Origin: a virus
Taxonomy: Duplodnaviria > Heunggongvirae > Uroviricota > Caudoviricetes
IMG/VR virus record: IMGVR_UViG_3300023371_000083
Direction: 5' to 3' (one strand)
DNA length: 64,000 nt
The position numbers and the translations under genes are program-made. Every line of letters starts with the position of its first letter. Position 1 is the first letter of the stretch. A model generated the notes under the pieces. It was given only the letters and a program-made list of their open reading frames with translations. It did no database searches and was not told the origin of the DNA. Below are positions 1,088-36,770 of this stretch, piece by piece.

Positions 1088-1235
1088 AGATTAAACTAAA
1101 AAATATTGTTGACAGATTTATACAAAAAGTTTATAATTAATTTAGACTAAAAAATCTTGTTAATTTGTTGTGAAAAAATAGTGTAAAATTTTCTAAAAAG
1201 ACTATTGCAAAGATTCCGGTAAATGTTATAATAAG
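1088..1235 (+). promoter_or_regulatory. three tandem promoter-like elements (TTGACA-17-TATAAT at 1109-1137; weaker extended -10 element near 1160-1189; TTGCAA-16-TATAAT at 1205-1232)
   Basis: Direct read of -35/-10 hexamers. Each is preceded by a variant of the CTAAAAA(A)TATTGTTGAC motif. Confidence 0.45.
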
Positions 1236-3779: not shown

Positions 3780-4271
3780 ATGAAGGTTGTATTTTTAGAT
3801 GTTGATGGTGTTTTAAACTGTGGTGAATCAAAATCAAGATGTGGTTGTTTTATTGGTATTGACGATAGCAGGGTAAAGCTTTTAAAAGAAATTATAGAAA
3901 AGACTGATGCAAAAATTGTATTAGTGTCTACATGGAAATTTGGATGGGAACCCATTGATAAAGAGGCAATGGACAGAGGTGGTATATACCTTGACAAAAA
4001 AATGAAAAGACAAGGGTTAACAATTATAGATAAAACATACGACAGAGGATGGAATAGAGGTCAAGGTATCAATCAGTACCTCGAAAAACATCCAGGGATC
4101 ACCTCTTGGATTATTCTTGATGATGAAACTTTTGAATATGAAGAAGAGGGGGTAATCTCCCATCTTGTTAAAACAAGTTTTTATAATGATGGTTTACAAG
4201 AAACTCATGTAAAAGATGCTATCGCAAGGTTAAATGAAAGTGATGGCACAAAAATTGAAAAGGGAGCTTGA
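3780..4271 (+). CDS. HAD-superfamily hydrolase (DxDGVLN motif; possibly polynucleotide 3'-phosphatase-like)
   Basis: N-terminal FLDVDGVLN motif I, followed by a VSTW motif-II-like region. Confidence 0.5.
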   Translation: MKVVFLDVDGVLNCGESKSRCGCFIGIDDSRVKLLKEIIEKTDAKIVLVSTWKFGWEPIDKEAMDRGGIYLDKKMKRQGLTIIDKTYDRGWNRGQGINQYLEKHPGITSWIILDDETFEYEEEGVISHLVKTSFYNDGLQETHVKDAIARLNESDGTKIEKGA

Positions 4272-4528
4272 TAGATATGATAATTATTGAATTTATCACT
4301 AAATCTATTAAGATTGTGTGCTGGTGCATAGCTAGATTTATTGTATGGATTGTAACAGCAAGAGATTGTAGACACTGTAAATATGGCAAACTGGAATCTT
4401 GTTATGCAGATGATTATTATAAATGCAAAAAAGCAGATTCGGAAACAAATTCCATGTACGACTACACACAAAATGTTATGGACTGTAAAAATAGTATTCT
4501 GAGAAAAAATTTCGAAAGAAAAAATTGA
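4268..4528 (+). CDS. hypothetical Cys-rich protein
   Basis: ORF track; start overlaps the previous stop. Confidence 0.35.
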   Translation: MIDMIIIEFITKSIKIVCWCIARFIVWIVTARDCRHCKYGKLESCYADDYYKCKKADSETNSMYDYTQNVMDCKNSILRKNFERKN

Positions 4529-4566
4529 TATAACTCATAATTGCAATAACTGAGAGGAGGAATTAT

Positions 4567-4968
4567 ATGTTGACATTTCCGTTTTTCTTAATCGTTTGTA
4601 TGTTGTTTTTGCATGTGGTAGATGACTATTATCTTCAGGGTATTCTTGCAAGCATGAAGCAGCGTGATTGGTGGTTAAAAAATACACCGGAAGATAAACA
4701 ATGTCTTTATTGTAAAGATTATTTAATGGCATTAGGAATGCACAGTTTTAGTTGGACATTTATGATTATGTTACCATTAACTTTTTATTATCTGATCAAT
4801 GATGGCGTATGGTTTCCAATGCTATATGTAATCAACACTATTATCCATTTTATTGTTGATGATACAAAAGCAAATAAAAAACGCATTAATCTTATTGAAG
4901 ATCAGACAATACATATTGGTCAAATCTTATTAACTTGGATTTGGTGTTATGTGATGTATGGAATGTAA
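4567..4968 (+). CDS. hypothetical membrane protein
   Basis: Hydrophobic segments. RBS GAGGAGG. Confidence 0.4.
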   Translation: MLTFPFFLIVCMLFLHVVDDYYLQGILASMKQRDWWLKNTPEDKQCLYCKDYLMALGMHSFSWTFMIMLPLTFYYLINDGVWFPMLYVINTIIHFIVDDTKANKKRINLIEDQTIHIGQILLTWIWCYVMYGM

Positions 4969-4980
4969 GGAGATGGGCTG

Positions 4981-5268
4981 ATGAGTAAAATTAAACCTGT
5001 TGAGGGGTATATATACTTTACTGAAACACAGCTTGTTAAATTAGAACATGCAATTGGATTTGATTTTCAATTAGTTAAAAATAATAAATTTATTTCTACT
5101 AGAAATTATTTTTCTTGCGAAAGAGTGGACGAAGATTGGGAATACTTATCCGCTGTTGGATATGCAAAACGTATCAACAGAGGAAAAAGGTTCCCTATTT
5201 ATACAGTGACAAGAAAAGGGAAAAACTTTATACAGCGAGTGACAAATGTAAAAATTATTGATGCGTAA
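4981..5268 (+). CDS. hypothetical protein
   Basis: ORF track. Confidence 0.4.
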   Translation: MSKIKPVEGYIYFTETQLVKLEHAIGFDFQLVKNNKFISTRNYFSCERVDEDWEYLSAVGYAKRINRGKRFPIYTVTRKGKNFIQRVTNVKIIDA

Positions 5269-5282
5269 CTTGAGGTGTTTAT

Positions 5283-5705
5283 ATGGAAAAGTTTAGTTTT
5301 AAGCAAGAAATAACCGCAGAACAATTGTTGGACTCTATTAGATGTGTTCATTCAATGTCTACATGCAACATTAAAAAAGTGTTTGGTGTACATATTGATT
5401 TTTTAGATAAAGATAGTTACACAAAATATGTTGTAGATAATTTTTCCACAAAAGAAATTATAGAAAAGGTAACAAAATGGCAAGAAGATAGGGTTTTTAA
5501 TAAAGATGATATTGTGTTGAATTTCGCATCTCAAAAGCTCTATATAGTTACATATATCGATGATTATAAAATCAAATTGATTGGATCTGATGGTGATACT
5601 CAATCTCATGATGCAAAAACCTTTTCTAAATGGTTTACAAAAACAGGTAATAAATGTAAATTAGAAAAATTTTTAATGAAAACATTAAAGGAAGATGGTG
5701 AGTAA
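5283..5705 (+). CDS. hypothetical protein
   Basis: ORF track. Confidence 0.4.
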   Translation: MEKFSFKQEITAEQLLDSIRCVHSMSTCNIKKVFGVHIDFLDKDSYTKYVVDNFSTKEIIEKVTKWQEDRVFNKDDIVLNFASQKLYIVTYIDDYKIKLIGSDGDTQSHDAKTFSKWFTKTGNKCKLEKFLMKTLKEDGE

Positions 5706-5707
5706 AC

Positions 5708-6136
5708 ATGTATAAACAGATTATTATTGCCAGAAAAGATTTGAATATGTCGCCAGGAAAATTAGCAGCACAGGTTGCTCATGGTAGTATGGCGTTTTTA
5801 ACAAACAGAATCAAAGAGGTTGCAAGAAGAGATTATATGGATGGTTATTATCTTGCAACACTGGCTTTTAATGATGAATTGTTCGACAACTGGATTAATG
5901 CATCTTTCACCAAAACAGTATTAAAAGCAAAAAATAAAAATCAATTATTAAAAGCAAAAACAATGGCTGAAGAATTAGGCATGAAAGAAGGAATCGATTT
6001 TTTCTGTATTTATGATAATTGCCTAACAGAGCTTGAGCCAGAAGAAGATGGCAGGACGCTAACTGTTATCGGGTTTAAACCTATGGATATAGAAATCATT
6101 GATCAGATTGGTAAGAAATATCAGTTGTATATATAA
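5708..6136 (+). CDS. peptidyl-tRNA hydrolase, PTH2 family-like
   Basis: N-terminal IIARKDLNMSPGKLAAQVAHGS resembles the PTH2 signature (VVRxDLxMxxGKIAAQxxH). Length about 140 aa fits the family. Confidence 0.55.
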   Translation: MYKQIIIARKDLNMSPGKLAAQVAHGSMAFLTNRIKEVARRDYMDGYYLATLAFNDELFDNWINASFTKTVLKAKNKNQLLKAKTMAEELGMKEGIDFFCIYDNCLTELEPEEDGRTLTVIGFKPMDIEIIDQIGKKYQLYI

Positions 6137-6170
6137 GAAGTATTGGAACGGAATATTGGGGAGTGATTAA

Positions 6171-7385
6171 ATGTTTGAATTAACAGGAAAATATAATACG
6201 GCTAAAGTATTTACTAACAATATTGAGCCAGAAGCAATCTCTCAGATTATCGAACTCTGCAACCAGGAATTTGTAAAAGAAAGCAAAATAAGAATTATGC
6301 CAGATGTTCATGCTGGTGCTGGCTGTACTGTTGGCACCACAATGACAGTCAAAGATAAGGTTGTCCCTAATTTGGTTGGTGTAGATATAGGCTGTGGCAT
6401 GTTGACAACAGCGATTGCAGAAAAAGAAATTGACTTAGCAAAACTAGATAAGTTGATTCATGATAAGATTCCGGCAGGATTTAATATCAGAAAGAAAAAA
6501 CATGATTATTTACGATATACAGACCTCACAAATTTAAGATGTATCGACCATGTAGATATGACAAGAGCAGAGCTGAGTCTAGGAACGCTTGGGGGCGGTA
6601 ATCACTTTATTGAAGCAGATCGTGACGATGATGGAAATATCTATATTGTCATTCATTCTGGAAGCCGACGCCTTGGTCTTGAAGTTGCAAAGTATTATCA
6701 AGAAGAAGCGTATAGATACCTTAACGGCTCTACAAAAGAAGATGCTGAGAAATTAATTGCAAAACTGAAATCTGAAGGTAGACATAGAGAGATCGAATCC
6801 GAGTTGGCAAAATTAAAGAATGTTAAACGAACCAGCGTTCCAAAACACCTTGCTTATCTGGAAGGAAAGTTATTACAGGATTATATTTGGGATATGAACA
6901 TTGTTCAGAAATATGCAATGTGGAATCGCTGTGCAATGATGGATGAAATCATTGATGGCATGAATTTGACAGATATTGGTTCTTTTACAACTATTCACAA
7001 CTATATTGCACCTGAAGGCGGAGACAGAATTATCTTGCGTAAAGGCGCTGTGGCAGCGTATGAAGGTGAATGGTTATTAATTCCTATTAATATGAGAGAT
7101 GGTAGTTTGATTTGTGAAGGCAAAAGTAATCCAGAATGGAACTATTCTGCTCCTCATGGTGCTGGTCGTATTATGAGTAGAAGTCAAGCGAAATCTACTT
7201 TTAAAATGGATGATTACATTGCAGAAATGAAAGATGTATATACAACTTCTGTTTCTACAGACACTTTAGATGAATGTCCTATGGCATACAAGAATATGCA
7301 GGAAATCATTGATAATATCGGTGATACGGTAAATGTGTTGAAAGTAATTAAACCGATTTATAATTTCAAAGCTGGTGGAGAGTAA
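6171..7385 (+). CDS. rtcB: RtcB-family RNA ligase (3'-phosphate/5'-OH ligase)
   Basis: Motifs MPDVHAGAGCTVG, GGGNHFIE and APHGAGR match RtcB metal-binding and GMP-binding signatures. Confidence 0.85.
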   Translation: MFELTGKYNTAKVFTNNIEPEAISQIIELCNQEFVKESKIRIMPDVHAGAGCTVGTTMTVKDKVVPNLVGVDIGCGMLTTAIAEKEIDLAKLDKLIHDKIPAGFNIRKKKHDYLRYTDLTNLRCIDHVDMTRAELSLGTLGGGNHFIEADRDDDGNIYIVIHSGSRRLGLEVAKYYQEEAYRYLNGSTKEDAEKLIAKLKSEGRHREIESELAKLKNVKRTSVPKHLAYLEGKLLQDYIWDMNIVQKYAMWNRCAMMDEIIDGMNLTDIGSFTTIHNYIAPEGGDRIILRKGAVAAYEGEWLLIPINMRDGSLICEGKSNPEWNYSAPHGAGRIMSRSQAKSTFKMDDYIAEMKDVYTTSVSTDTLDECPMAYKNMQEIIDNIGDTVNVLKVIKPIYNFKAGGE

Positions 7386-7400
7386 AGGAAAGGTGTCTCA

Positions 7401-7754
7401 ATGTTTCGGAAAATATTTACAGGCAAAAACAGCAGCACAGTGGTAGTCGATGGCAAAACTTATGAAGTCGAAGGCAATAACATTATGATTCGCAACGGCA
7501 AAATTATTGTTGATGGTAAAGTAATCAATGATGAAAAAGTCGGTGTTTCTAAAGTGATTGTTACAGGAAATTGCGAAAGCATTAATTGCGATGGCTCTGT
7601 AGAAATAAACGGCGATTCTGGCAGGGTTAAATGTGGAGGTAGTTGTCATATTGGTGGAAATGTCACTGGTGGTGTTTTTGCTGGTGGATCTGTAACCTGT
7701 GGAAATATTGAAGGCGATGTTCTTTCCAGTGGAAGTGTAATAGCTAAAGGATGA
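7401..7754 (+). CDS. bactofilin-like / polymer-forming Gly-rich beta-helical protein
   Basis: Repetitive V/G-rich segments (GxVxGxV...), typical of a bactofilin domain. Confidence 0.4.
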   Translation: MFRKIFTGKNSSTVVVDGKTYEVEGNNIMIRNGKIIVDGKVINDEKVGVSKVIVTGNCESINCDGSVEINGDSGRVKCGGSCHIGGNVTGGVFAGGSVTCGNIEGDVLSSGSVIAKG

Positions 7755-7776
7755 TATAAATGAAAGAAGTGATATA

Positions 7777-8157
7777 ATGAAAAATTTTAGAGCATTTGCT
7801 GATGAAAATTATGATTATTATGAATTAACAGAAAACTTGGGTTACAACAATTCTGGATACGGCATTCATAAATATCTTCTTCCAAAAGGTGCAATTTTTG
7901 TACATGATAAGCACGATCAAGTACATGGTTCTATTGCAGATGGTTGTTTAACGCTTTGTTGGACTCCAGATGGTAATTGTTATGGATGTTTGGGAGGCGA
8001 AGGGTTACATTTACACGCAGCATTCAAGAGAACATCTATGTTTAAATTAGTAAAAAAAGGAAAAAGCGCAATGATTGCAGAGGTTGAACATGTAATCGAG
8101 GATTTAGAGAAAAAATTGGAAGAAGCAAAAGAGAAATTAAAAGAAATGAGGGAATAA
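7777..8157 (+). CDS. hypothetical protein with C-terminal coiled coil
   Basis: ORF track. Confidence 0.4.
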   Translation: MKNFRAFADENYDYYELTENLGYNNSGYGIHKYLLPKGAIFVHDKHDQVHGSIADGCLTLCWTPDGNCYGCLGGEGLHLHAAFKRTSMFKLVKKGKSAMIAEVEHVIEDLEKKLEEAKEKLKEMRE

Positions 8158-8158
8158 A

Positions 8159-9274
8159 ATGTCATACATTTATCAACGCCCTTTACATGGGAAAAGCATT
8201 GGAGTGGTTTTTGGCTCTTTTGCACCATTACATAAAGGTCATATTGATTTAATTATGAAGGCTAAAAAAGAAAATGATGGTGGATGTATCGTTATTGTAT
8301 GTGGTTATGATGGCGACAAAGGTGAACCTATCATTCCCCACAATAAAAGATACAGATATGTAAGAGAATATTTTAAAGACGATGAAATGGTTGCGGTGTT
8401 CCCTGTAAACGATACAAAAATTGGGGCAAATGCGTATCCAGATGGATGGGAAGTCTGGCTAAAAGAATTTTTTAATATCTGGAATGTTGCTGTGACACCG
8501 GTATCAAAAGAAGCAAAAAGAGTATGGTATGTCGGAGATCCTAATTATCATTTTGACCTTGAGAAACGTGGTGAATGTGCAATTCTCGTAAATAGAATGC
8601 TAAATCCAATTTCAGCAACAATGATTAGAGCTAATCCTTATAAATATTGGGATATGATGGCTTATACATTTCACGGAGCATTTAGTCACAACATTCTAAT
8701 TACTGGTACTGCAAGTGAAGGGAAAACAACATTAGTAAAAGATTTGGGTAAATATTTTAATACAACATATAGTCATGAGATGCCAAGAGATTATATGGAG
8801 GAAATGTGCGTTCATGATACCGAATTAGACGCAGTTGATTTTCTCTCTTTTCTTCAGGGGCAATACAATCTGAATCGTAAAATGATTAATTCCCCATTAA
8901 ATAAAGGCGTATTTTTTGCAGATACAGATGCTCTGGTAACGCAAATGTATGCAAAATATTATGCTATGGATGATACATGTAAAATGACAAAAGATGATTA
9001 TTATATGGTGGTCTCTCATGTCGCACATGCATTAACTAAACGCAGTAGATGGGACAAGATTTTTGTTTTAATTCCTCATGGTAATTTTGTGAATGATAAT
9101 TCACGCTATATGGAGCATAGCGGTATGAAAGAAAGGATGGAATTGTATAAAATTCTTGAATCTTTTCTTATTGCTCATGGGTTAATGGAAAAGGTAACAA
9201 TTTTAACAGGAGATTATTATGAGAACTATCTTGCAATTAAGGAATATACGGAAGGGGTGTTAAATCATGGGTAA
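8159..9274 (+). CDS. nadR: NadR-like bifunctional NMN adenylyltransferase / ribosylnicotinamide kinase
   Basis: N-terminal nucleotidyltransferase motif GSFAPLHKGH (HxGH), followed by the P-loop GTASEGKTT of the kinase domain. Confidence 0.65.
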   Translation: MSYIYQRPLHGKSIGVVFGSFAPLHKGHIDLIMKAKKENDGGCIVIVCGYDGDKGEPIIPHNKRYRYVREYFKDDEMVAVFPVNDTKIGANAYPDGWEVWLKEFFNIWNVAVTPVSKEAKRVWYVGDPNYHFDLEKRGECAILVNRMLNPISATMIRANPYKYWDMMAYTFHGAFSHNILITGTASEGKTTLVKDLGKYFNTTYSHEMPRDYMEEMCVHDTELDAVDFLSFLQGQYNLNRKMINSPLNKGVFFADTDALVTQMYAKYYAMDDTCKMTKDDYYMVVSHVAHALTKRSRWDKIFVLIPHGNFVNDNSRYMEHSGMKERMELYKILESFLIAHGLMEKVTILTGDYYENYLAIKEYTEGVLNHG

Positions 9275-9986
9275 AACAAAAGATATCTTAAAAAGTGAAT
9301 TTGTTAATGGTTATACAACCTTTGATAAATTATTTATGGGGATCATGGTATTAATGCAAATCATTGTTTTTGCAATTACTCCTGATTCGCCTATTGCGAT
9401 TATCGCCGGCATTAGTGGTGTGATTTCTGTTGTGCTTTGTGCTAAAGGAAAAATTTCCTTTTATTTTATTGGCTTCATTCAGACGATTACATATTTAATT
9501 CTGTCTTGGCAGAATCGATTTTATGGAGAAGTAATTGAAAATGTATTTTACCTTGTAACAATGGTGTGGGGAATTTTTATTTGGAAAAAACACTTGAATA
9601 CAGATGATAGTGGTTCTACACAGGTTGACGCTTTGAAATTTACACCAAATCAATGGATTGCATCTAGTGTATTAATTATTATTGCCACCATTGTTATGGG
9701 GTGGATGCTTACAAAGATTGGGAGCAATCAGGCATATACAGATGCAGCAACAAATGTAATTGCGATTTTTGCTCAATTATTAATGGTAAAAAGATATAGA
9801 GAGCAGTGGCTGTTCTGGATTGTAATTGATGTACTTTGCATTAAACTATGGGCTGTAGCAGGAAACTGGTCTATGGTAGCAATGTATATTGGATGGACGG
9901 CAAATTGTATTTATGGTTGGAAAAACTGGAGTGAATCTGTATCTTATAGAAACGATGAAAAACTAATGGTGATTAGGGAGGTATAA
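9267..9986 (+). CDS. pnuC: PnuC-like nicotinamide riboside transporter
   Basis: Multi-TM protein of 239 aa. Overlaps nadR by 8 nt, matching the classic nadR-pnuC pairing. Confidence 0.55.
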   Translation: MGKTKDILKSEFVNGYTTFDKLFMGIMVLMQIIVFAITPDSPIAIIAGISGVISVVLCAKGKISFYFIGFIQTITYLILSWQNRFYGEVIENVFYLVTMVWGIFIWKKHLNTDDSGSTQVDALKFTPNQWIASSVLIIIATIVMGWMLTKIGSNQAYTDAATNVIAIFAQLLMVKRYREQWLFWIVIDVLCIKLWAVAGNWSMVAMYIGWTANCIYGWKNWSESVSYRNDEKLMVIREV

Positions 9987-9987
9987 C

Positions 9988-10566
9988 ATGAAGCTAACTG
10001 TAAACTACATCAAAAATTGTAAGCCGGTAGATTCAAGATTACTGGAAAAGATTGATGAAATTTTAGATGAAATTTCAACATTAGATAATGAAACTAATCC
10101 AGAAGAATATTTTGGATTTGAATTAAATGGTATTAAATATGATGTATTTCAAATCGATCAAACAAGATGGAGTGATGAAGGAAAATATCAGTATAGACAG
10201 GATCTGTATCAGTTAGTGTCTTATGATGATTCTATCAGACCTTATGTTTGCGACAAAAGTATTGTAAACTGTTTTAATTGTTTCTTTGAAGTAGCTGTAA
10301 CACGGTCTGGATCGTACTTTAGCGACTATATGTATTGGTATGAGAAACCAGTTATGAAATTCGGTAAAATAAAACATATTCCTGAAGTAGTAATTCCTGA
10401 ACATGATGAATATGAACTAACAGAAACATACATTATTGATTGCAGAATGTGTGATAAATTAAATGAAACAGGTGATGCATGTAAAGTGTACGGAAGTGAT
10501 CCGAAAATTGCAACAGAAAAATGTACGACAGATGGCTTTAAAGAATACTATGTAAATATTGAATGA
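9988..10566 (+). CDS. hypothetical Cys-rich protein
   Basis: ORF track. Confidence 0.4.
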   Translation: MKLTVNYIKNCKPVDSRLLEKIDEILDEISTLDNETNPEEYFGFELNGIKYDVFQIDQTRWSDEGKYQYRQDLYQLVSYDDSIRPYVCDKSIVNCFNCFFEVAVTRSGSYFSDYMYWYEKPVMKFGKIKHIPEVVIPEHDEYELTETYIIDCRMCDKLNETGDACKVYGSDPKIATEKCTTDGFKEYYVNIE

Positions 10567-13102: not shown

Positions 13103-13693
13103 GTGAGCGATATCGCTGCAAATTATGAAAGATACCTTAACCTTTGGCGTTCAGTAAAAAGAGACGGTATCAATGAGGTTATTAATTTTATTGAGAAATC
13201 AGATATGAAAACGGCTCCAGCAAGCACAAGATTTCACTCTGATTTCGAAGGCGGTTTACTTGAACATAGTTTAAATGTATATGACTGCTTGGTCGCAAAA
13301 AAAGAAGCCCCAATCTGGAAAGATAAATTAAAAGATGTTTCTGAAGAAGCAATGATTATCACTGCATTGGGTCATGATTTTTGTAAATTGTATTTTTACA
13401 AAGAAGGTACAAGAAATGTAAAAAATGAGGATACAGGAAAATGGGAAAAAGTACCTTTTTATTCCATTGAAGATAAGTATCCACTCGGTCATGGTTCTAA
13501 GAGTGTTATTTTCTTGCAGATGTTTATGAAATTAACAATGGAAGAAATCATGGCAATTAATTGGCATATGGGGTTCTCAGTTCCTAAAGAAGAATATTCA
13601 TCCGTTGGAAAAGCGTTTGAAAAATATCCTCTTGCTCTGGCACTGCACGAGGCGGATCTGGAAGCTACTAATCTGCTTGAAGCAGATGGCTAA
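13103..13693 (+). CDS. HD-domain phosphohydrolase
   Basis: H...HD motif (LEHSLNV ... ALGHDFCK). Confidence 0.55.
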   Translation: MSDIAANYERYLNLWRSVKRDGINEVINFIEKSDMKTAPASTRFHSDFEGGLLEHSLNVYDCLVAKKEAPIWKDKLKDVSEEAMIITALGHDFCKLYFYKEGTRNVKNEDTGKWEKVPFYSIEDKYPLGHGSKSVIFLQMFMKLTMEEIMAINWHMGFSVPKEEYSSVGKAFEKYPLALALHEADLEATNLLEADG

Positions 13694-17327: not shown

Positions 17328-20300
17328 TCAAGAAATGGTCGGCAAAACTTATACACCATATCATGTTCACACAGACCTCTCTACCGGGGTCACTAATGTA
17401 GATAGTGTAACTAAATATAAAGATTACATTGCAAGAGCAAAAGAATTAGGCATGAAGGCATTTGCTTTTTCAGAACACGGATCTGTATTCGAGTGGCTCC
17501 ATAAAAAAGAAGCAATCGAGGAAGCTGGAATGAAATACATCCATGCTGCTGAGGTATATCTTACAGAAACATATGAAGAAAAAATTAGAGATAATTACCA
17601 TTGTGTTCTTATTGCAAAAAACTTTGATGGCTTCAAAGAAATTAATAAGTTAATTTCAAAATCTTTCTTAAAAGAACATTATTATTATTCTCCAAGAATT
17701 TTAATCGATGATGTTATTAATACATCTGAAAATGTAATTATTACATCTGCGTGTCTCGGCGGTGTTTTTGGAAAAGGTACAAGCAGTGCAAAAGAAAAAA
17801 TGCTTTGTTTTGCAATTGCGAATAAAGATAGATTTTTCTTAGAAGTACAGCATCACAACATTGATAAACAAAAAGAATATAATAAACTTCTGTATCAGAT
17901 CAGCAAAGAATATGGAATTAGATTAATTGCTGGCACTGATACACATTCTTTAGATGATAAACATGCAAGAGGCAGGGTAATTTTACAGAAAGCAACTGAT
18001 ACATTTTTCTCTGATGAAGAGGGTTGGGATTTAACTTTTAAAAGTTATGATGAGCTTGTTGAAGCATATTATAAACAAAATGTATTACCAGAAGATGTAT
18101 TTATGAAAGCCATTGAAAACACAAATGTTATGGCAGATATGGTAGAAGAATTTACATTGGACAGAAGCACGAAATATCCGAAAATTTATGAAAATTCAAA
18201 AGAGATATTTGAGCAAAAAGTCAGAGAAGCTTGTAAAAATCATAAATACATTCAACAGCGTTATACACAGGAAGAAATTGATAAGTTCATTAAAGAAGAG
18301 CTTGAAGTATATGAAAAAACAGAGTCTATCGACTTTATGCTTCTTGAAAACCATAAAAAAGAATGGGAAACAGAGAATGGTATCCAGAGAGGTTATGGTA
18401 GAGGTTCTGTATCTGGTAGCATGATTGCTTATGCGCTTGGTATTACAGAAATGGATTCCAAAAAATTTGGTCTTAACTTTTTCCGCTTCCAGAATCCAGA
18501 CCGTGTTACTAACTGTGATATTGATGTGGATTATAGTGAAAAAGATAGGGAAAAGGTAAAAACATTTATTCTTAGAGATCATATGAATCTGGATAATCTT
18601 CGTTCTTGCGACATTATCACATTTAACACAATTGCGCTCAAAGGTTCTATCAAATATGTTGGTAAAGCCCTTGATTATCCAATTGAAATTACACAGGCAC
18701 TATCAAATGGTGTGTATCTTGATGAAGAGGGTAAAGAAACAGTTGCACCTGAAATTAGAAAAGCATATCCCGATATTTTTGAGTATGTAGACATTGTAAA
18801 AGGCACAGTTATTTCTATTGGCACTCATGCAAGCGGCGTTGTAGTAAGTGACCTTGAAATTGACGAAATGTTTGGTACATGCAGTGTAAAAGATTCTGAA
18901 TATCCAGTCTCAATGATTAACATGAAAGAACTCGATGCTCTGATGTATGTTAAATTAGATATCCTTGGTCTTGATAACATCGGTGTAATTAATGAAACAT
19001 GTAGAATTCTTGGAATTGATCGTTTAAACCCAGATAATACTGACCTGAATGACGAAAATGTTTGGAAAAGTATCAGGGAAGATACGACGCTCATTTTTCA
19101 ATGGGAATCAGAGTCAGCACAATCTTATTTAAAAAGATTTATGTCTGATAAAACAATTCAAAAAGTAAAGAAACGAAATGAAGATTTTTCCTATATCAAA
19201 TGGTTTTCATTTGGTAATGGTCTACTGAGACCTGCGTGTGCCAGCTACAGAGATTCCGTTGCGAGTGGTGAGTTTTATCAGAATGGTTTAAAAGAGCTCG
19301 ATGATTTTCTTGCCCCAACTATGGGACATGTAACTATGCAGGAAGATATTATGCAATTTCTTGTAAGATTTTGTGAATACACTCAAGCAGAATCCGATAC
19401 AGTACGTCGAGGTATTGCAAAAAAATATGGTACTGAAAAGTTTCTACCTGAAATTGAAGAGCGATTTACGAGTCATGCGACAGACGCATATGAATTAAAA
19501 ACTGATGAATGTTCTGAAATTATCAAGCCGTTTTTGCAGGTAATTTTAGATGCATCAAAATATTCTTTTTCTTGGAATCACTCTGATGCATATAGCTGTG
19601 TAGGATATATTTGTGGATATTTAAGATATTATTATCCATTAGAATTTATTACTGCAGCGATGAATGTATTTAGATCAAAGGTAGAAAAAATCGGGAATAT
19701 CGTTAAATATTCAAAAAAATCAAATGTTGAATTAATGCCTATTCGATTCAGATATTCAAAATCAGATTATATGTTTGATAAAGATAACAACACAATTTAT
19801 AAAGGCGTATTTTCTGTAAAAAGTGTAAACGAACAAGTATCTGATGATTTATATGCTCTTCGTGATATGAAATTTGATAACTTTATGGAATTAATTACAT
19901 ATTGCAAAATGAATTTTCCCATTAAATTTAATCAGATTGAGGCATTAATTAAACTTGAGTATTTTAAAGAGTTTGGAGAAATTCCATATCTTTTAACATG
20001 TTTAAATGTTTTTAAAGTATACCACAAAAGATCTACATTAAAAAAAGAAGAAGTTCGGGATCTTGGTATCTCTTATGATGAAATCAAAAAGTTTTGCGGA
20101 AAAGAAACAGCGAAACAGTATTCACAAGTTGATATGAGTTGTTTTATGAATTTGGTTGTCCAAAAGCAATATACACACAGAGAAGTGACCATCGGTGAGA
20201 TTTTATCTTATCAAGATAAATATCTTGGATATATTGATTTTGCTGATTCCAAATATTCCAAATTCGTTCTTATCGAGAAAGTTGATACAAAATTTTCCCC

Positions 20301-25129: not shown

Positions 25130-27356
25130 AAGAAACGGTACAGAAATGTAGTTTGATTCAAATAAGATTAAAATAGCGATTTTAAAAGCATTTGTTGATG
25201 TAGATGGTGAAGAAAGCCAGTATGCAAAAGACAAGGCGAGAGATATTGCTAATTATATCGCATCTTTAAATAAAACAATGTCTGTAGAAGAAATCCAAAA
25301 TATCGTTGAAGAAAAACTGATGGCTAGCAATAGAAAAGATGTAGCCAGAGCATATGTTCGATACAGATAGATGAGAGATATGGCAAGATCCCAGTACGAT
25401 GGTTTTATGCAAGCCATTAGGGAAAAGGTTGAAGCTTCAAATGTTCAAAATCAAAACGCCAATGTAGATGAACATTCTTTTGGTGGCAGAACCGGCGAGG
25501 CAACAGACACAATGATGAAAAAGTATGCTCTTGACTATTGTGTGTCAAAAATGGCTAGAGACAACCATCTGAATAATATTATTTACATTCATGATCTGAA
25601 TTCTTATGCCGTAGGCATGCATAACTGCCTGTCAGTACCTTTAGATGATTTGCTGAAAAATGGGTTTAACACAAGACAGACTGATGTACGTCCTGCAAAT
25701 TCTGTTAATACAGCATTTCAGCTTGTAGCAGTGTTATTCCAGTTGCAATCACTAATGCAGTTTGGCGGCGTGTCCGCTACCCATATTGACCATACAATGG
25801 TTCCTTATGTGAGAAAGAGTTTTTATAAACATCTAATGGATGGTTTTAAGTATATTGAGGGCGTAGCAGAGCCTAGAAAATATATGTATCAAGAAAACGC
25901 TGATGAATTTTGGACTCAATACACTGATATTGATGACAAGGATTTAAAAGCAGCGCATCCTAAAGCATACCAATACGCAATGGATATGACGACAAAAGAG
26001 ACATATCAGGCAGTTGAAGGTATGTAGCATAACCTCAATACACTGCAGAGTAGATCTGGTAATCAGCTTCCATTTAGTTCTGTGAATTACGGCACGTGTA
26101 CTCTACCAGAAGGCAGAATGGTAACAAAAGCGTTGTTAGAAGTATCAATCAATGGTATCGGCAAACTACATAGAACGTCTGTGTTCCCTTGTGGTATTTT
26201 CCAGTGTATGAAAGGCGTAAATAGAAAACCTGGCGATCCTAACTACGATTTGTTCCAATTGGCATTAAAATCTACAGCACAGAGACTGTATCCCAATTAT
26301 GCCAATGTGGATTGGAGTAATAACGCAGGATACGATATTAATGACCCTAGAACATATTTTAGTACAATGGGTTGTCGTACAGCCAACCTGTTCGACATTA
26401 ATGGCTTAGGTCAGCTTAAAGATGGTAGAGGCAACATCTGTCCTGTAACAATCATTATGCCTACATTGGCTATGATGGCAAAAGAACTGTACGAAGACCA
26501 GACTTACGATACACATGCTAATATTGTAGATATTTTCTTATACATTCTCGACCAAAAAATTCATGAGGCAAAAGATATGCTTATTGAACGATTTGAGTGG
26601 ATTTGTAAACAGAATCCAAAATCTGCAAAATTCATGTATGAAAATAATCTAATGGCTGGTTATGTTCCAGAAGAAGGAATTAGAAGCGCTTTAAAACATG
26701 GCACCCTAGCTTTAGGTCAGTTAGGTCTTGCGGAAACACTGCAGATTCTAATTGGTTGTGACCATACAACAAAAGAAGGTATGGATTTGGCAAAACAGAT
26801 TGAGCAGTTATTCAAAGATAGATGTGCTGAGTTCAAACAAGAATATCAACTGAATTTTGGTGTTTATTATTCTCCAGCAGAAAATCTTTGTCATACAGCA
26901 ATGAGAAAATTCCAAGAACAATATGGCGTGATTGAAAAAGTATCTGATAAAGATTATTTTACAAACTCTATGCATATTCCTGTATGGCATAAAATGACAC
27001 CATTTGAAAAGATTGATTTAGAAGCGCAGTTAACAGGATACTCTAGTGCTGGATGTATTACATATGTAGAACTTGAATCTTCAGTAAAACATAACATCGA
27101 GGCACTTGAAACACTTGTTAATTATGCAATGGATCAGGATATTCCTTATTTTGCAATTAATGTTCCCAATGATACATGTTTAGATTGTGGTTATTGCGAT
27201 GAAATTAATGATGTTTGCCCCATGTGCGGAAGCAAAAGAATTCAGCGTTTACGTAGAGTAACTGGTTATTTAACAAATGATTACAAAACAGCATTTAATT
27301 ATGGCAAACAACAAGAAGTTGAAATGAGAGAAAAGCATAGTGGGGTATCCGTATGA
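25116..27356 (+). CDS. nrdD: anaerobic ribonucleoside-triphosphate reductase NrdD (class III) with three in-frame TAGs (25149, 25368, 26025)
   Basis: ATP-cone VIKRNGTEM[TAG]FDSNKIKI...AYVRYR[TAG]...; core ...EGM[TAG]HNLNTLQSRSGNQLPFSSVNYG; C-terminal Zn ribbon and glycyl-radical RVTGYL motif. TTG start follows RBS AGGAGG. Confidence 0.8.
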
Positions 27357-28816: not shown

Positions 28817-30094
28817 ATGAAAACAGTAATCAAAATATTTGAGCAATTAAAAAACACCTCTGGCAAAAAAGATAAAGAGGCAATTATTGAAACCAATAAG
28901 GATAATGAATTATTCAAAGAATGTCTGGTATTTCTGTTAGACGATAATGTGACTACAGGTATCGCAAAAAAATCCTTGCAAAAGAACATCAAATGCGACG
29001 GCGACATTATGTTATTAGTATCTTGGCAAGATTGTATGTCTTATTTAAAAGAAAATAATACTGGTAAAGATTACGACATTTTAGTTGCACAAGGTTTTGT
29101 AAAATTCCAAGATGAAGCAGATAGATGGTTTTATGAAGGTATGATTACCAAAACACTTAAAATTGGTTGCGATAAAGCAATTGTCAATAAAGTGATTCCA
29201 CAATTAATTCCAGATTGGAAAGTTCAGCTAGGTTCTTCGTTTGAAAAATTGAGATTGAAAGATAACGAAAAATTCTTTTTAAGTAAAAAAATGAATGGAC
29301 ATAGAGGATCATTTTATGAAGGCAAATTTATTTCTCGCCAAGGTAAAGAAATATCTGGTTTACAACATATCATTGACGATATTGAAAAACTATATCTTAG
29401 TACATACTTTATCGACGGCGAATTGATAAGGAAAAATGTAGAGAATCTTGATGATAACGAGAATTTCAGAATCACATCGAGTATTTTAAATTCTGATACA
29501 GAAGATAAATCTGACATTGAGTTTGTAATTTTTGATATTTTTCCAGCAGATACAATTGTTGGCAATCATACTATCGAAAATTATAGTGAACGGAAAAAGC
29601 GGATGAAAGATTTAGAGTATCTTTTTCAACATAATAATATTCGTAACTTGAAAATTGTCGAAATGGTGTATGAAGGTACAGATCCTAATCAAATTCATAA
29701 ATGGCTAAAATATGCTGTAGATAATGACTGGGAAGGGATTATGCTAAACAAGGATGTTCCTTATGTGTTTAAACGCACAACGAATGTTATAAAAATCAAA
29801 CAGTTTTTATCCATAGATTTAAGAATCATCGGGTATGAAGAAGGTCAAGGAAAAAACGAAGGAAAGCTTGGAGCTTTTGTTGTTGATTATAAAGGCAATA
29901 AAGTTGAAATTGGCGGTGGATACTCAGATGAAGAGCGTGCAACCTTTTGGGAACACAGGGATGAGATGATTGGAAAAATCATAGAAATTAAATATAAAGG
30001 TGAATCCCAAAATAAAAGGAGTGGGTTAAAGAGTCTTCAGTTTGCAGATTTTGTCTGCATCAGAAACGATAAAAATGACCCTAGTTACAACTAA
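28817..30094 (+). CDS. ATP-dependent DNA (or RNA) ligase, nucleotidyltransferase superfamily
   Basis: KMNGHRG (KxDG-like motif I) ... EGIMLNK ... KIK (motif V-like). Confidence 0.55.
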   Translation: MKTVIKIFEQLKNTSGKKDKEAIIETNKDNELFKECLVFLLDDNVTTGIAKKSLQKNIKCDGDIMLLVSWQDCMSYLKENNTGKDYDILVAQGFVKFQDEADRWFYEGMITKTLKIGCDKAIVNKVIPQLIPDWKVQLGSSFEKLRLKDNEKFFLSKKMNGHRGSFYEGKFISRQGKEISGLQHIIDDIEKLYLSTYFIDGELIRKNVENLDDNENFRITSSILNSDTEDKSDIEFVIFDIFPADTIVGNHTIENYSERKKRMKDLEYLFQHNNIRNLKIVEMVYEGTDPNQIHKWLKYAVDNDWEGIMLNKDVPYVFKRTTNVIKIKQFLSIDLRIIGYEEGQGKNEGKLGAFVVDYKGNKVEIGGGYSDEERATFWEHRDEMIGKIIEIKYKGESQNKRSGLKSLQFADFVCIRNDKNDPSYN

Positions 30095-30108: not shown

Positions 30109-30816
30109 ATGAGTCGAATATTTGTGACGGGCGATACACACGGAGATTTTTTCCATATATAGAATTTCTGTCTTGATAATAATACTAGCATAGACGACAT
30201 TATGATTGTTTGTGGCGATGCTTGCATAAATTTTTATCTTGATAAAAGAGATGACAGACTTAAAGAAAGAATAGCTGGAATACCAATAACATTTCTAATT
30301 GTGCATGGAAACCATGAAGAACGAGCTTGGAATGTTAAGGGTTATAAACTGAAAGAACATAAAATTGGAACAGATAATTATGTGTATGGATATAGCGAAG
30401 AAAAATATCCAAATATAATTTTTGTTCAAGATTTTCATATTGAAACATTGAACGGAAAAAGATTTATGTTCCTTGGTGGTGCTTATTCTGTAGATAAATT
30501 CTATAGATTAGCAATGAACTGGTACTGGTTTGAATCTGAGCAAATGCCAGAAGAGGAAATGCTAGAGGTCTTAAAATTTGTCACAAGCGTAAGTAATTTC
30601 GATTATGTTGTGTCACATACATGTCCGTATAAATATATTCCAACAGAGGCGTTTTTGCCATCGATTAACCAGAATACAGTTGATCAGAGTACAGAATATT
30701 TCTTAGATGAAGTTGATGATTTAATTCAATACAAACAATGGTATTGTGGGCATTGGCATATCAAAAAAGAAATTCAAAAATTAAAATTCTTATTTGACGA
30801 TATTATTGAAATTTAA
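30109..30816 (+). CDS. calcineurin-like metallophosphoesterase with TAG at 30160
   Basis: VTGDTHGDFFHI[TAG]...CGDA...VHGNHEE phosphoesterase motifs. RBS AAGAGGTGA. Confidence 0.55.
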
Positions 30817-35103: not shown

Positions 35104-35130
35104 ACCTTGATATATCAACGATATAAGAAG
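35090..35130. other. candidate attP/att core (perfect palindrome TTGATATATCAA overlapping the recombinase stop)
   Basis: Position lies between the miaB fragment and the serine recombinase; palindrome read directly. Confidence 0.25.
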
Positions 35131-36770
35131 TTCTGTGTTAAGCCATTCTTAAATTTAATTGCCAAAACTGTGCTGTTATCACCCACAGAAACATAATCAA
35201 TAACATTATTGAAGAAATCTTGTAGTTGTTTTTCATCAACATTCACGGCTAATTCTTGATAGGAAATTTCTTTTCCTCTGCCGAGTTCCCAGTCGATGAT
35301 ACATCTATCAAGTAATTTATTGTCAACCAGTGGAAGCATTGCATCTTTATTCTGATTTGCTGCATGTATCTGCTGGTTGATTTCATTTAATTCAGCAGTT
35401 AATTTTGTTCTTTTTTCGAGATAATCTCTTTCAGGCATACTGTCATCAGAAAACAGATATAAATCATCCAACCTTTTTAAAGCTCTCTCGATTTTTTCTT
35501 GACGCTGTTTAAATACTTCTGTGTCAGAATATTCAGTATTATGACTGACTGTGATAAGTTTATTCGGCTTGTAACCACATTTTAAAACTTCTTTTATATC
35601 CTCGATACTCTGTTGACTGATATATGCAACATCTTTGAAGGCTTTACCAGATAGTAATCTTTCTTCTAAGTTAGTAAAGTCTTTACTGTTTTGAATGGTA
35701 ATCATATTACTCATATAATTTAAAATGAAATTACCAAGATATGTATCCGTGATAGCGCCTTTACTCATACAGGTATTACCGTGCATTCTGTTAGAGCATC
35801 TATAAGAAGAAGGGTGGTATCCATTTTTTCTTTTAGTATCTTTGTGTGCAGATGTGCCTCCGCCACATAATCCACATTTTAATAAACCGCTAAAAGAATG
35901 TGTATGACCGCCCACAATTCTTCGTCTGCATGGTTCAGCTCTTTTTTGAAGAATTGCATTCACTTTATCAAACTGTTCTTGTGAAATAATTGCTTCATGA
36001 TTATTTGGTACAATGACCCATTCTTCTTCTGGTCTAATCTTACCTCTACCACTTTCTTGGTAGTTGTATCTTAGTGTACCAATGTAGAAGGGGTTTCTTA
36101 GCGTCTGTGTGATGGATTTAGCATACCAGTTACCATTTCTCTTGGTTGGAATCTTTCGTTCATTTAAGAGCCTTGCAATGCGTAATACGGATGGTTCTCT
36201 TTCGTATTCATCAAAAATCATTTGTACAATCTTCTTTTCATCTTCATCAACAACTGGATACATGCTTTCTGGATCAAATTTGTATCCTAATGGAGCCGCT
36301 GTGCCATTCCATTTACCTTCTTTGGCTCGTGAAATCATTGTTGCTCTTACTCTGACTGCAGTCATTTCTCGTTCCAACTGAGCAAATGTCATGATGATAT
36401 TCAACATTGCTCGACCCATAGGTGTGTCTGTCTGAAAATTATCAGTCTTACTTACAAACTGAATATCTAAATCTTCAAACTCATCCCACATTTTTGCGAA
36501 GTCACCAATGTTTCTAGAAATTCTATCTAGTTTCCAAACTACAACATGAGAAAATTCTTTATTTCTCAACCTTTGCATCATACTCTGAAAAGCGGGACGA
36601 TCTGTATTCTTAGCAGAATACCCAGCATCTTCAAAAATTTCATAATCTTTGACACCAAGAACAATCTCACAATAATTGATTAAATCTTTTTTCTGCATTG
36701 GAAGTGAATCTTTATCTGCTTGATAAATTGTACTTACTCGTACATAGATTGCTGCTTTACTGTTTTTAAT
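35115..36770 (-). CDS. large serine recombinase (integrase); N-terminus extends upstream of the track's M to include the catalytic YVRVST; probable non-ATG (ATT) start after RBS AAAGGAGGT
   Basis: Resolvase domain (AAIYVRVST found by extending the frame), recombinase domain, Cys-rich zinc ribbon, coiled coil. Stop is TGA. Confidence 0.85.
   Translation of the reverse strand: MKNSKAAIYVRVSTIYQADKDSLPMQKKDLINYCEIVLGVKDYEIFEDAGYSAKNTDRPAFQSMMQRLRNKEFSHVVVWKLDRISRNIGDFAKMWDEFEDLDIQFVSKTDNFQTDTPMGRAMLNIIMTFAQLEREMTAVRVRATMISRAKEGKWNGTAAPLGYKFDPESMYPVVDEDEKKIVQMIFDEYEREPSVLRIARLLNERKIPTKRNGNWYAKSITQTLRNPFYIGTLRYNYQESGRGKIRPEEEWVIVPNNHEAIISQEQFDKVNAILQKRAEPCRRRIVGGHTHSFSGLLKCGLCGGGTSAHKDTKRKNGYHPSSYRCSNRMHGNTCMSKGAITDTYLGNFILNYMSNMITIQNSKDFTNLEERLLSGKAFKDVAYISQQSIEDIKEVLKCGYKPNKLITVSHNTEYSDTEVFKQRQEKIERALKRLDDLYLFSDDSMPERDYLEKRTKLTAELNEINQQIHAANQNKDAMLPLVDNKLLDRCIIDWELGRGKEISYQELAVNVDEKQLQDFFNNVIDYVSVGDNSTVLAIKFKNGLTQNFLYR

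Follow-up and report, generated by a model that had tools for sequence, protein, structure and literature searches.

A Pth2-type peptidyl-tRNA hydrolase gene beside an RtcB RNA ligase gene in an uncultured Clostridia phage, and the recurrent occurrence of phage Pth2 near RNA-repair genes

Many anti-phage systems kill by cutting tRNA, among them PrrC, RloC, Cas13, PARIS, some retrons and Schlafen-like nucleases. In the paradigm of phage recovery, Pnkp and Rnl1 of phage T4 repair the tRNA that has been cut by the PrrC anticodon nuclease; outside of this paradigm, recovery of phages from tRNA cutting is poorly documented. For jumbo phages, section 3.4.9 of Iyer et al. 2021 (PMC7824862) proposes that RtcB/Rnl ligases repair nuclease-cut tRNAs and that an archaeo-eukaryotic-type PTH2 hydrolyses peptidyl-tRNA during ribosome rescue. 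In bacteria, an RtcB2-PrfH operon for ribosome rescue and repair was predicted by Burroughs and Aravind (PMC6514570) and experiments have shown that the peptide is first freed from the damaged ribosome by PrfH and that RtcB2 then repairs the RNA (Tian et al. 2022, PMC9304027). Here we describe a phage locus at which an RNA ligase and a peptidyl-tRNA hydrolase are encoded side by side. It lies in a stretch of 64,000 nucleotides from a Caudoviricetes phage (IMG/VR record IMGVR_UViG_3300023371_000083), which we refer to as the window, and consists of a gene for a Pth2-type peptidyl-tRNA hydrolase (5708–6136, + strand) and a gene for an RtcB 3′-phosphate/5′-OH RNA ligase (6171–7385, + strand).

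A first-pass annotation of this DNA had named the two adjacent genes as PTH2 and RtcB. Both open reading frames (ORFs) were found exactly where it had placed them, and profile searches recovered both families with scores far beyond chance (PF01981, 82 bits against a cutoff of 23; PF01139, 213 bits against a cutoff of 27). The 142-aa Pth2 (phrog_1866) matches the PTH2 profile over its full length (positions 1–115 of 115, E 4e-23). Its residues K18, within GKLAAQVAHG, and D103/T107, within IYDNCLTE, correspond in the alignment to the catalytic Lys and Asp in the archaeal structures 1wn2 and 1rlk, where the matching motifs read GKLAAQVAHG and IRDAGLTE, and K18 and D103 are invariant among 29 homologues. 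We take the catalytic residues of the S. solfataricus enzyme to be Lys18 and Asp86. When an AlphaFold2 model of the protein (pLDDT 85, pTM 0.80) was compared with the PDB using Foldseek, the significant matches were Pth2 and Bit1 structures only, the top 14 all having a probability of 1.0; the target-normalised TM-score was 0.69–0.77 for 13 of these 14 and 0.47 for the nuclear magnetic resonance entry 1rzw. The assignment to the PTH2 family therefore holds on the full-length profile match, the predicted fold and the retained Lys and Asp, and by the same measures the enzyme looks catalytically intact. The archaeal Pth2 equivalog models NF003314 and TIGR00283 were not reached (77 against 126 bits and 60.6 against 82, respectively), and judged by its sequence the protein is a member of a divergent phage or bacterial clade and not an archaeal orthologue. 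This clade, which has no name, is a large one: clustering at 90% identity gives at least 3,484 clusters, and its carriers are phages and prophages of gut Firmicutes.

The window Pth2 has an insert of ~25 aa after helix 1 (residues ~31–55). Across the clade the insertion at this site is hypervariable, ranging from 0 to ~90 aa, and at the loci examined for it (L064, L072, L074, L077, L081, L111, L114 and the window) the long versions share a module, PQYYRHPDL...F(Y/F)YKP.NP..PYG...C, which could be a tRNA- or ribosome-binding adaptor. Three contigs of Faecalibacterium metagenome-assembled genomes (L109, L110 and L113) encode a Pth2 53–56% identical to that of the window in seemingly ordinary chromosomal neighbourhoods, a setting judged from ORF lengths, with the families found in our neighbourhood census not mapped to individual loci. 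If this is correct, the clade is not restricted to phages. Genes for AI-2E transporters, purine synthesis and iron transport are among the census matches at genome-derived Pth2 loci.

The RtcB of the window (404 aa) matches PF01139 with an E value of 1e-62 and, over residues 1–402, phrog_1075 (‘tRNA splicing ligase’) with 470 bits. Its residues were compared with the P. horikoshii reference, in which D95, C98, N202/H203, H234, H329 and H404 are the metal/GMP residues. All of the motif residues are present (D45/H47, D72/C75, N144/H145, H162, H276 and H329), with H276 placed by motif and not by the HMMER alignment. The motifs GVDIGCG, GGGNHF, VIHSGSR, TIHNY and PHGAGR can all be recognised, the last of them containing the GMP-accepting histidine, H329. 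Thus the two-metal and GTP-binding motifs of the Pyrococcus enzyme are kept and RtcB, too, looks catalytically intact at the level of sequence. The model for the RtcB2 subfamily (TIGR03073, ‘release_rtcB’) was not reached, at 101 bits against a cutoff of 271.8. Outside the phage lineage, the closest RtcBs (65–67% identity) are encoded on the chromosomes of Ruminococcus, Lachnospiraceae and Massiliimalia, among ordinary bacterial genes (gyrase, DpaA, cellulase/dockerin) and with no Pth2 nearby. This argues that the juxtaposition of RtcB and Pth2 arose inside the phage lineage, and it is likely that a host-derived RtcB was put beside a Pth2 from the phage gene pool. A Pfam scan of the ORFs from 3780 to 10566 detected no RtcA cyclase, RtcR regulator, archease or Rsr family and no PrfH or release-factor domain, and there were no Rfam matches to Y RNA in the window. 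The 140-aa ORF upstream of Pth2 (5283–5705) was considered as an archease and gave no Pfam match at E≤1.

Contigs found through similarity to RtcB carry tRNAs with the anticodon CTA near the RtcB gene (L087, 9343–9419; L092, 8731–8808). ARAGORN labels both as tRNA-Pyl; they are probably amber suppressors and hint at stop-codon recoding. A further contig, L090, has a phage tmRNA just downstream of RtcB (7798–8154).

The two genes of the window are co-directional and separated by 34 nt, and each is preceded by a Shine-Dalgarno-like sequence. In two diverged relatives the genes remain within 1.4 kb of each other in a changed arrangement. In L099, where RtcB is 87% identical to that of the window, RtcB comes before Pth2 with a 1-nt gap, the order opposite to that of the window. 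In L100 (RtcB 74% identical), RtcB is followed by two small ORFs, a Tpt1/KptA RNA 2′-phosphotransferase, one more ORF and then Pth2, at a distance of 1.3 kb. The accessory genes around the pair are not the same: the window has NadR and PnuC, whereas the relatives have PARG, DUF7666 and a SPASM protein. Moreover, the pairing is found independently in an unrelated lineage, the Mycobacterium abscessus prophages prophiT49-2 and prophi86-1, where a tRNA array, a tmRNA and an RF-1-like gene are succeeded by RtcB, one or two genes and Pth2. Elsewhere, phage RtcB genes adjoin tRNA or tmRNA genes, as in L090, L092 and PegLeg. Among the loci surveyed, the RtcB-Pth2 pair is kept only in the lineage of the window (L099 and L100) and in the mycobacterial prophages. 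The pair is clearly not an obligate module, yet we argue that its linkage is not accidental.

The neighbourhoods of the Pth2 clade offer a broader view. Pth2 loci were clustered to 32 non-redundant contexts, or 33 counting the window, and flanking ORFs of at least 100 aa were scanned against Pfam, after which matches were mapped with tblastn seeds. Of the 33 contexts, at least 12 have genes for RNA end healing or sealing no more than 3.5 kb from Pth2, and the chemistries differ. RtcB is the neighbour in three of them (the window, L099 and L100). L012 and L108 have a Pnkp-like protein in which a P-loop kinase, a metallophosphoesterase and an Rnl1 ligase are fused. An Rnl2-like ligase occurs in L050, where it is joined by an AAA_33 kinase and a phosphoesterase just upstream of Pth2, and in L072, where a phosphoesterase fusion follows it. 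A metallophosphoesterase directly adjoins Pth2 in L114, L117 and L041, the RNA-repair nucleotidyltransferase RlaP lies near it in L075, and HAD_SAK_2 is found in L012, L115 and the window, the last also being an RtcB context. Further matches comprise one Thg1 and a second Tpt1 at L071, 4 kb off. That Pth2 occurs with three chemically different RNA-repair cassettes points to a shared function and is otherwise hard to explain. The clearest example of Pth2 within a heal-and-seal RNA-repair cassette is L012, an IMG/VR phage contig that carries on one strand (4280–9531) HAD_SAK_2, a 188-aa ORF, a 117-aa protein, Pth2, a YAcAr SLOG-domain protein and a 739-aa Pnkp-like kinase-phosphoesterase-Rnl1 ligase.

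In the largest Pth2 cluster (54 near-identical contigs), the start of Pth2 is overlapped by 4 nt by an upstream gene for a protein of ~150 aa. This protein combines a Zn-ribbon-like motif of four Cys with a charged coiled-coil tail and belongs to no Pfam family. At L072 it forms a fusion with the repair-type metallophosphoesterase that follows the Rnl2-like RNA ligase. It was located at L078 (5538–6008), L033 (5523–6008), L072 (4947–6008), L117 (5433–5882) and L066 (4595–5017), and may be an RNA-repair accessory.

Beyond the pair itself, the first-pass annotation had put forward a HAD phosphatase, an ATP-dependent ligase and an HD hydrolase as sources of additional end-healing steps. The first of these is a stand-alone, HAD_SAK_2 phosphatase-like protein of 163 aa (3780–4271, + strand; PF18143, E 1e-24, 87.6 bits), and PF18143 is the HAD domain of ‘Swiss army knife RNA repair proteins’. 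Such proteins were reportedly defined by Burroughs and Aravind in 2016 (NAR 44:8525). Homologues lie 1.1–1.2 kb from Pth2 in the two unrelated contexts L012 and L115, and from its family and these contexts we regard the protein as a probable accessory of the RNA-repair theme; the suggestion is thus right as to the type of HAD, although RtcB needs no end healing. The ATP-dependent ligase (28817–30094) is a DNA ligase by both Pfam (PF01068 and PF14743) and PHROG (phrog_114, 294 bits), which rules it out as an RNA-sealing enzyme. The supposed HD hydrolase (13103–13693) has no Pfam HD match at E≤1 and matches phrog_28876 (‘metal-dependent phosphohydrolase’) with an E value of 1e-40; it sits in the replication block of the single-strand annealing protein (SSAP) and DnaB, a block that is 80–82% conserved in relatives, and is unlikely to be an RNA end-healer.

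Two further genes were weighed as partners. A calcineurin-like metallophosphoesterase of 204 aa (30202–30816, + strand; PF00149, phrog_1649) shares 25–27% identity with the phosphoesterases that adjoin Pth2 in L114 and L117, and its membership of a module is doubtful because it lies 24 kb away. Seeds for the Pnkp-like protein, the Rnl2-like ligase and the AAA_33 kinase, taken from the related loci, found no match in the 64-kb window. A heal-and-seal set of kinase, phosphatase or phosphoesterase and RNA ligase is accordingly lacking from these 64 kb, in which neither HAD_SAK_2 nor the metallophosphoesterase has a cognate ligase or kinase. The 117-aa protein encoded after RtcB (7401–7754, phrog_3163) has Gly/Cys-rich repeats and is modelled as a small all-beta solenoid (pLDDT 80) with no significant match in the PDB. 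Its gene comes after Pth2 or RtcB in four contexts (the window, L099, L100 and L012); we rejected it as a specific partner since it is also present in phages without Pth2 or RNA-repair genes (L119 and L120, which lack Pth2 and RtcB).

We hypothesise that RtcB and Pth2 are functionally coupled in a response to RNA damage, a proposal to which we give an even chance. The phage would express the two enzymes together with its early and replication genes. RtcB would directly reseal breaks with 2′,3′-cyclic-phosphate and 5′-OH ends, for example anticodon-loop nicks left by metal-independent RNases, and Pth2 would strip the peptide or N-acyl-aminoacyl group from tRNAs leaving stalled or aborted ribosomes so that these could be recharged. 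The two would act in sequence on the same damaged-tRNA problem, for which we do not propose an obligate complex, and the outcome would be restoration of the chargeable tRNA pool once translation comes under attack by RNA-cutting effectors. Which substrates are used, in what order the enzymes act and that a host anti-phage nuclease is the trigger are inferences, whereas family, fold, catalytic motifs, co-orientation and the recurrent linkage of Pth2 with RNA-repair genes are observed. More tentatively, Pth2 may be a dedicated and hitherto unrecognised part of phage RNA-repair cassettes and the functional counterpart of PrfH, taking the peptide off damaged peptidyl-tRNA before resealing, with whichever ligase is carried (RtcB, Pnkp-like Rnl1 or Rnl2) serving for the second step; we hold these two statements jointly and as somewhat less probable than not. 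If this is true, three unrelated chemistries together with the Zn-ribbon protein and the phosphoesterase would define a general ‘release-then-reseal’ counter-defence in phages of Firmicutes and Actinobacteria.

A number of observations weigh against coupling. By tblastn, RtcB was found within 6–10 kb of Pth2 at none of 79 IMG/VR loci, whose Pth2 is 49–71% identical to that of the window, and at none of 11 genome loci; conversely, Pth2 was found at none of 12 IMG/VR RtcB loci. With no Pth2-RtcB pair in these 79 + 12 + 11 loci, the idea of a conserved two-gene module was dropped. The first-pass annotation had described the pair as a tRNA/translation rescue module; the comparative context fits rescue, but a conserved module it is not, RtcB being absent at 90 Pth2 loci. 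The GenBank phages XacN1, EF1 and Astolliot have Pth2 and no RtcB nearby, and 677 GenBank phage records contain RtcB compared with 23 that contain a detectable Pth2 of the window kind, almost all of the 677 being without this Pth2. The window genes form part of a tightly packed, co-directional array of early genes, where adjacency alone carries little meaning, and the 64 kb contain neither tRNA genes nor Rfam RNA matches. The extra end-healing parts once proposed for the locus proved mostly wrong. Moreover, the census of 33 contexts had no matched background control, and DNA ligases and further enzymes of nucleic-acid metabolism are likewise recurrent neighbours of Pth2. A common ‘nucleic-acid accessory’ region may thus account for part of the enrichment. 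Lastly, a counter-defence role is one that we infer, and no target tRNA nuclease of the host was identified.

The scarcity of the pair among Pth2 loci and RtcB-bearing phages, as well as the dense packing of the array, would be expected if the two were simply independent neighbouring accessory genes, Pth2 being a booster of translation capacity that counters the sequestration of tRNA by drop-off products while the phage translates heavily, and RtcB joining unrelated RNA (or DNA with 3′-P/5′-OH ends). This is the main rival to coupling, and it involves neither a functional connection nor a defence trigger. The largest Pth2 cluster, which has no recognisable ligase within 6 kb, fits it as well. 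So does the behaviour of phage lambda, which fails on pth(rap) E. coli when bar minigenes cause peptidyl-tRNA to build up, and which illustrates that Pth capacity can limit phage growth. We nonetheless consider independence rather unlikely. The proximity of the two genes outlasts rearrangement of their order in L099 and L100, the pair was assembled separately in mycobacterial prophages, and Pth2 is repeatedly found with three chemically different kinds of RNA-repair cassette.

Pth2 enzymes hydrolyse N-blocked aminoacyl-tRNA in standard assays, an activity that would suit an antidote to tRNA-acylating GNAT toxins (TacT, AtaT, ItaT). In such a scheme Pth2 would remove N-acetyl-amino acids and RtcB would handle nuclease damage separately, and there is a bacterial precedent in Pth1, which detoxifies TacT-acetylated Gly-tRNA (PMC9241777). 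However, the window and related loci give no pointer to GNAT toxins, and the recurring neighbours of Pth2 are enzymes of nucleic-acid end healing and sealing, none of them acyl-related; we think an antidote role highly improbable. Least probable of all, in our estimation, is repair directed at the ribosome, as RtcB2-PrfH carries it out, with RtcB resealing decoding-centre rRNA cut by colicin-E3-like or contact-dependent inhibition (CDI) ribotoxins and Pth2 clearing peptidyl-tRNA from the dismantled ribosome. A lysogen might in this way be protected from the toxins of competitors. The integrase and recombinase genes of the phage would agree with this, as would the RF-1-like GGQ protein and tmRNA of the mycobacterial prophage modules. 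Yet RtcB falls far short of the TIGR03073 cutoff, the scanned ORFs lack a PrfH gene, and both genes are oriented with the lytic replication genes. Furthermore, the Pth2 family is established biochemically to act on free peptidyl-tRNA and not on the ribosome. Functional coupling of RtcB and Pth2 is our leading hypothesis.

The window (GC ~33%) derives from a large uncultured phage whose host is a member of the gut or rumen Clostridia. It is not a jumbo phage: at least 24 metagenomic contigs of this phage carry the exact window RtcB, and these exact relatives assemble to ~107 kb, the largest being 107.6 kb (ERZ27248436 k141_1105663). A search for a close phage relative in GenBank found none. According to profile scans, whose coverage leaves out many small ORFs, the + strand from ~0.1 to 34.7 kb holds accessory, replication and nucleotide-metabolism genes, namely those for an MrpR-like tyrosine recombinase, a class-V aminotransferase, HAD_SAK_2, Pth2, RtcB, a NadR-like protein and PnuC; for Sak SSAP, DnaB, primase, a PD-(D/E)XK nuclease and Pol III alpha; and for a split NrdD, NrdG, DNA ligase, Band_7, FolD and dUTPase. 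From 35 kb onwards, the − strand encodes a serine recombinase, tail fibres and a tape-measure protein. A consensus scan found a perfect sigma-70-like candidate promoter, TTGACA-17-TATAAT, at 1109–1137 (+ strand), with a terminator-like hairpin just 5′ of it at 1052–1075. This is a candidate start for a long + strand unit covering HAD, Pth2, RtcB, NadR and PnuC, for which the evidence is weak because the total of promoter-like sites in the window is not above the shuffled expectation.

Three recombinases are associated with the phage. Two are tyrosine recombinases, the MrpR-like one at 118–1047 and another just upstream of the window start, which is seen on locus L095 (871–1875). The third is a large serine recombinase (35115–36698) at the strand-switch point, where cumulative GC skew peaks at ~35 kb. 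Together, the recombinases and the coincidence of the skew peak with the strand switch suggest a temperate or plasmid-like lifestyle.

Other neighbours concern cofactor and nucleotide metabolism. Starting 0.8 kb downstream of RtcB, a gene for a NadR-like nicotinamide mononucleotide (NMN) adenylyltransferase/ribosylnicotinamide kinase (8159–9274), which lacks a helix-turn-helix domain, overlaps a gene for the nicotinamide-riboside transporter PnuC (9267–9986). From their families, the pair is a complete uptake-and-salvage route to NAD+ carried on a phage, and it is possibly a counter to NAD+-depleting defences. The relatives L099 and L100 lack NadR and PnuC and have PARG_cat_microb in their place, L100 also carrying the NAD+-using Tpt1. 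For the anaerobic ribonucleotide reductase NrdD there are two separate ORFs (25371–26027 and 26082–27356), 54 nt apart, which cover Pfam profile positions 2–141 and 164–562. A distant relative, L105 (27–30% identity), has the same two-piece NrdD (17623–17967 and 18076–19293), and the split therefore looks genuine and not the product of sequencing error. Finally, the class-V aminotransferase (1614–2738), for which Pfam names the class only, is read by us as a NifS/IscS-like cysteine desulfurase. The unrelated contig L107 encodes a homologue with 44% identity (4210–5379) at a distance of 3.4 kb from Pth2, and the phage enzyme may supply Fe-S clusters for NrdG or serve tRNA thiolation.

In summary, the tRNA/translation rescue reading of this locus is supported by context and restates the published hypothesis of Iyer et al. 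2021. Given those proposals and the pair that is already labelled in GenBank in mycobacterial prophages, the locus is a further example of a known idea and, on its own, one more well-preserved instance from an uncultured Clostridia phage. Novelty may lie in how widely Pth2 is associated with RNA-repair cassettes, with the caveat that the 2016 work of Burroughs and Aravind falls outside the literature that we compared. Our literature searches turned up no experiment on phage Pth2, nor any on phage RtcB as a counter-defence. If Pth2 truly works with RNA ligases, backbone repair would be insufficient by itself and clearing of the peptide would be a selected step. The ‘rescue then repair’ logic of bacterial RtcB2-PrfH would then extend to phages, and the two genes would offer a concrete pair to test against tRNA-targeting defences.

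How, then, does the locus compare with the systems described so far? Should the proposed role hold, it would resemble T4 Pnkp and Rnl1 (referred to in PMC9503650) as a phage-encoded means of restoring nuclease-cut tRNA in the face of abortive-infection defence. The chemistry is different: T4 uses a kinase/3′-phosphatase followed by an ATP-dependent ligase, whereas RtcB needs GTP and Mn2+ and joins 3′-P to 5′-OH ends directly. T4 is not known to encode a Pth, and the window has no detected polynucleotide kinase or Rnl homologue. With the phages of Iyer et al. 2021 (PMC7824862) the window shares both proposals, for a non-jumbo phage with a gut or rumen Clostridia host; there, in the parts of the paper considered, RtcB and PTH2 are treated separately and without physical linkage, whereas here the genes are adjacent. 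The prophages prophiT49-2 and prophi86-1 (GenBank OQ417962 and MW584160) likewise encode an RtcB-like ligase and a ‘peptidyl tRNA hydrolase’ on the same strand. Their proteins are only ~30–33% identical to those of the window and, unlike the window genes, the actinophage module stands at the end of an array in which ~20 or more tRNA genes are accompanied by a tmRNA and an RF-1-like gene.

From RtcB2-PrfH, the locus is set apart by its hydrolase, since Pth2 has an unrelated fold and acts on free peptidyl-tRNA whereas PrfH is a GGQ release factor that works on the ribosome. The window pair is moreover phage-borne, does not form an obligate two-gene operon and has an RtcB from outside the RtcB2 subfamily, whose likely substrate is tRNA and not 16S rRNA. 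What the two have in common is the pairing of an RtcB gene with a gene for a peptidyl-tRNA ester hydrolase and, as we propose, the logic of release followed by resealing against ribotoxins.

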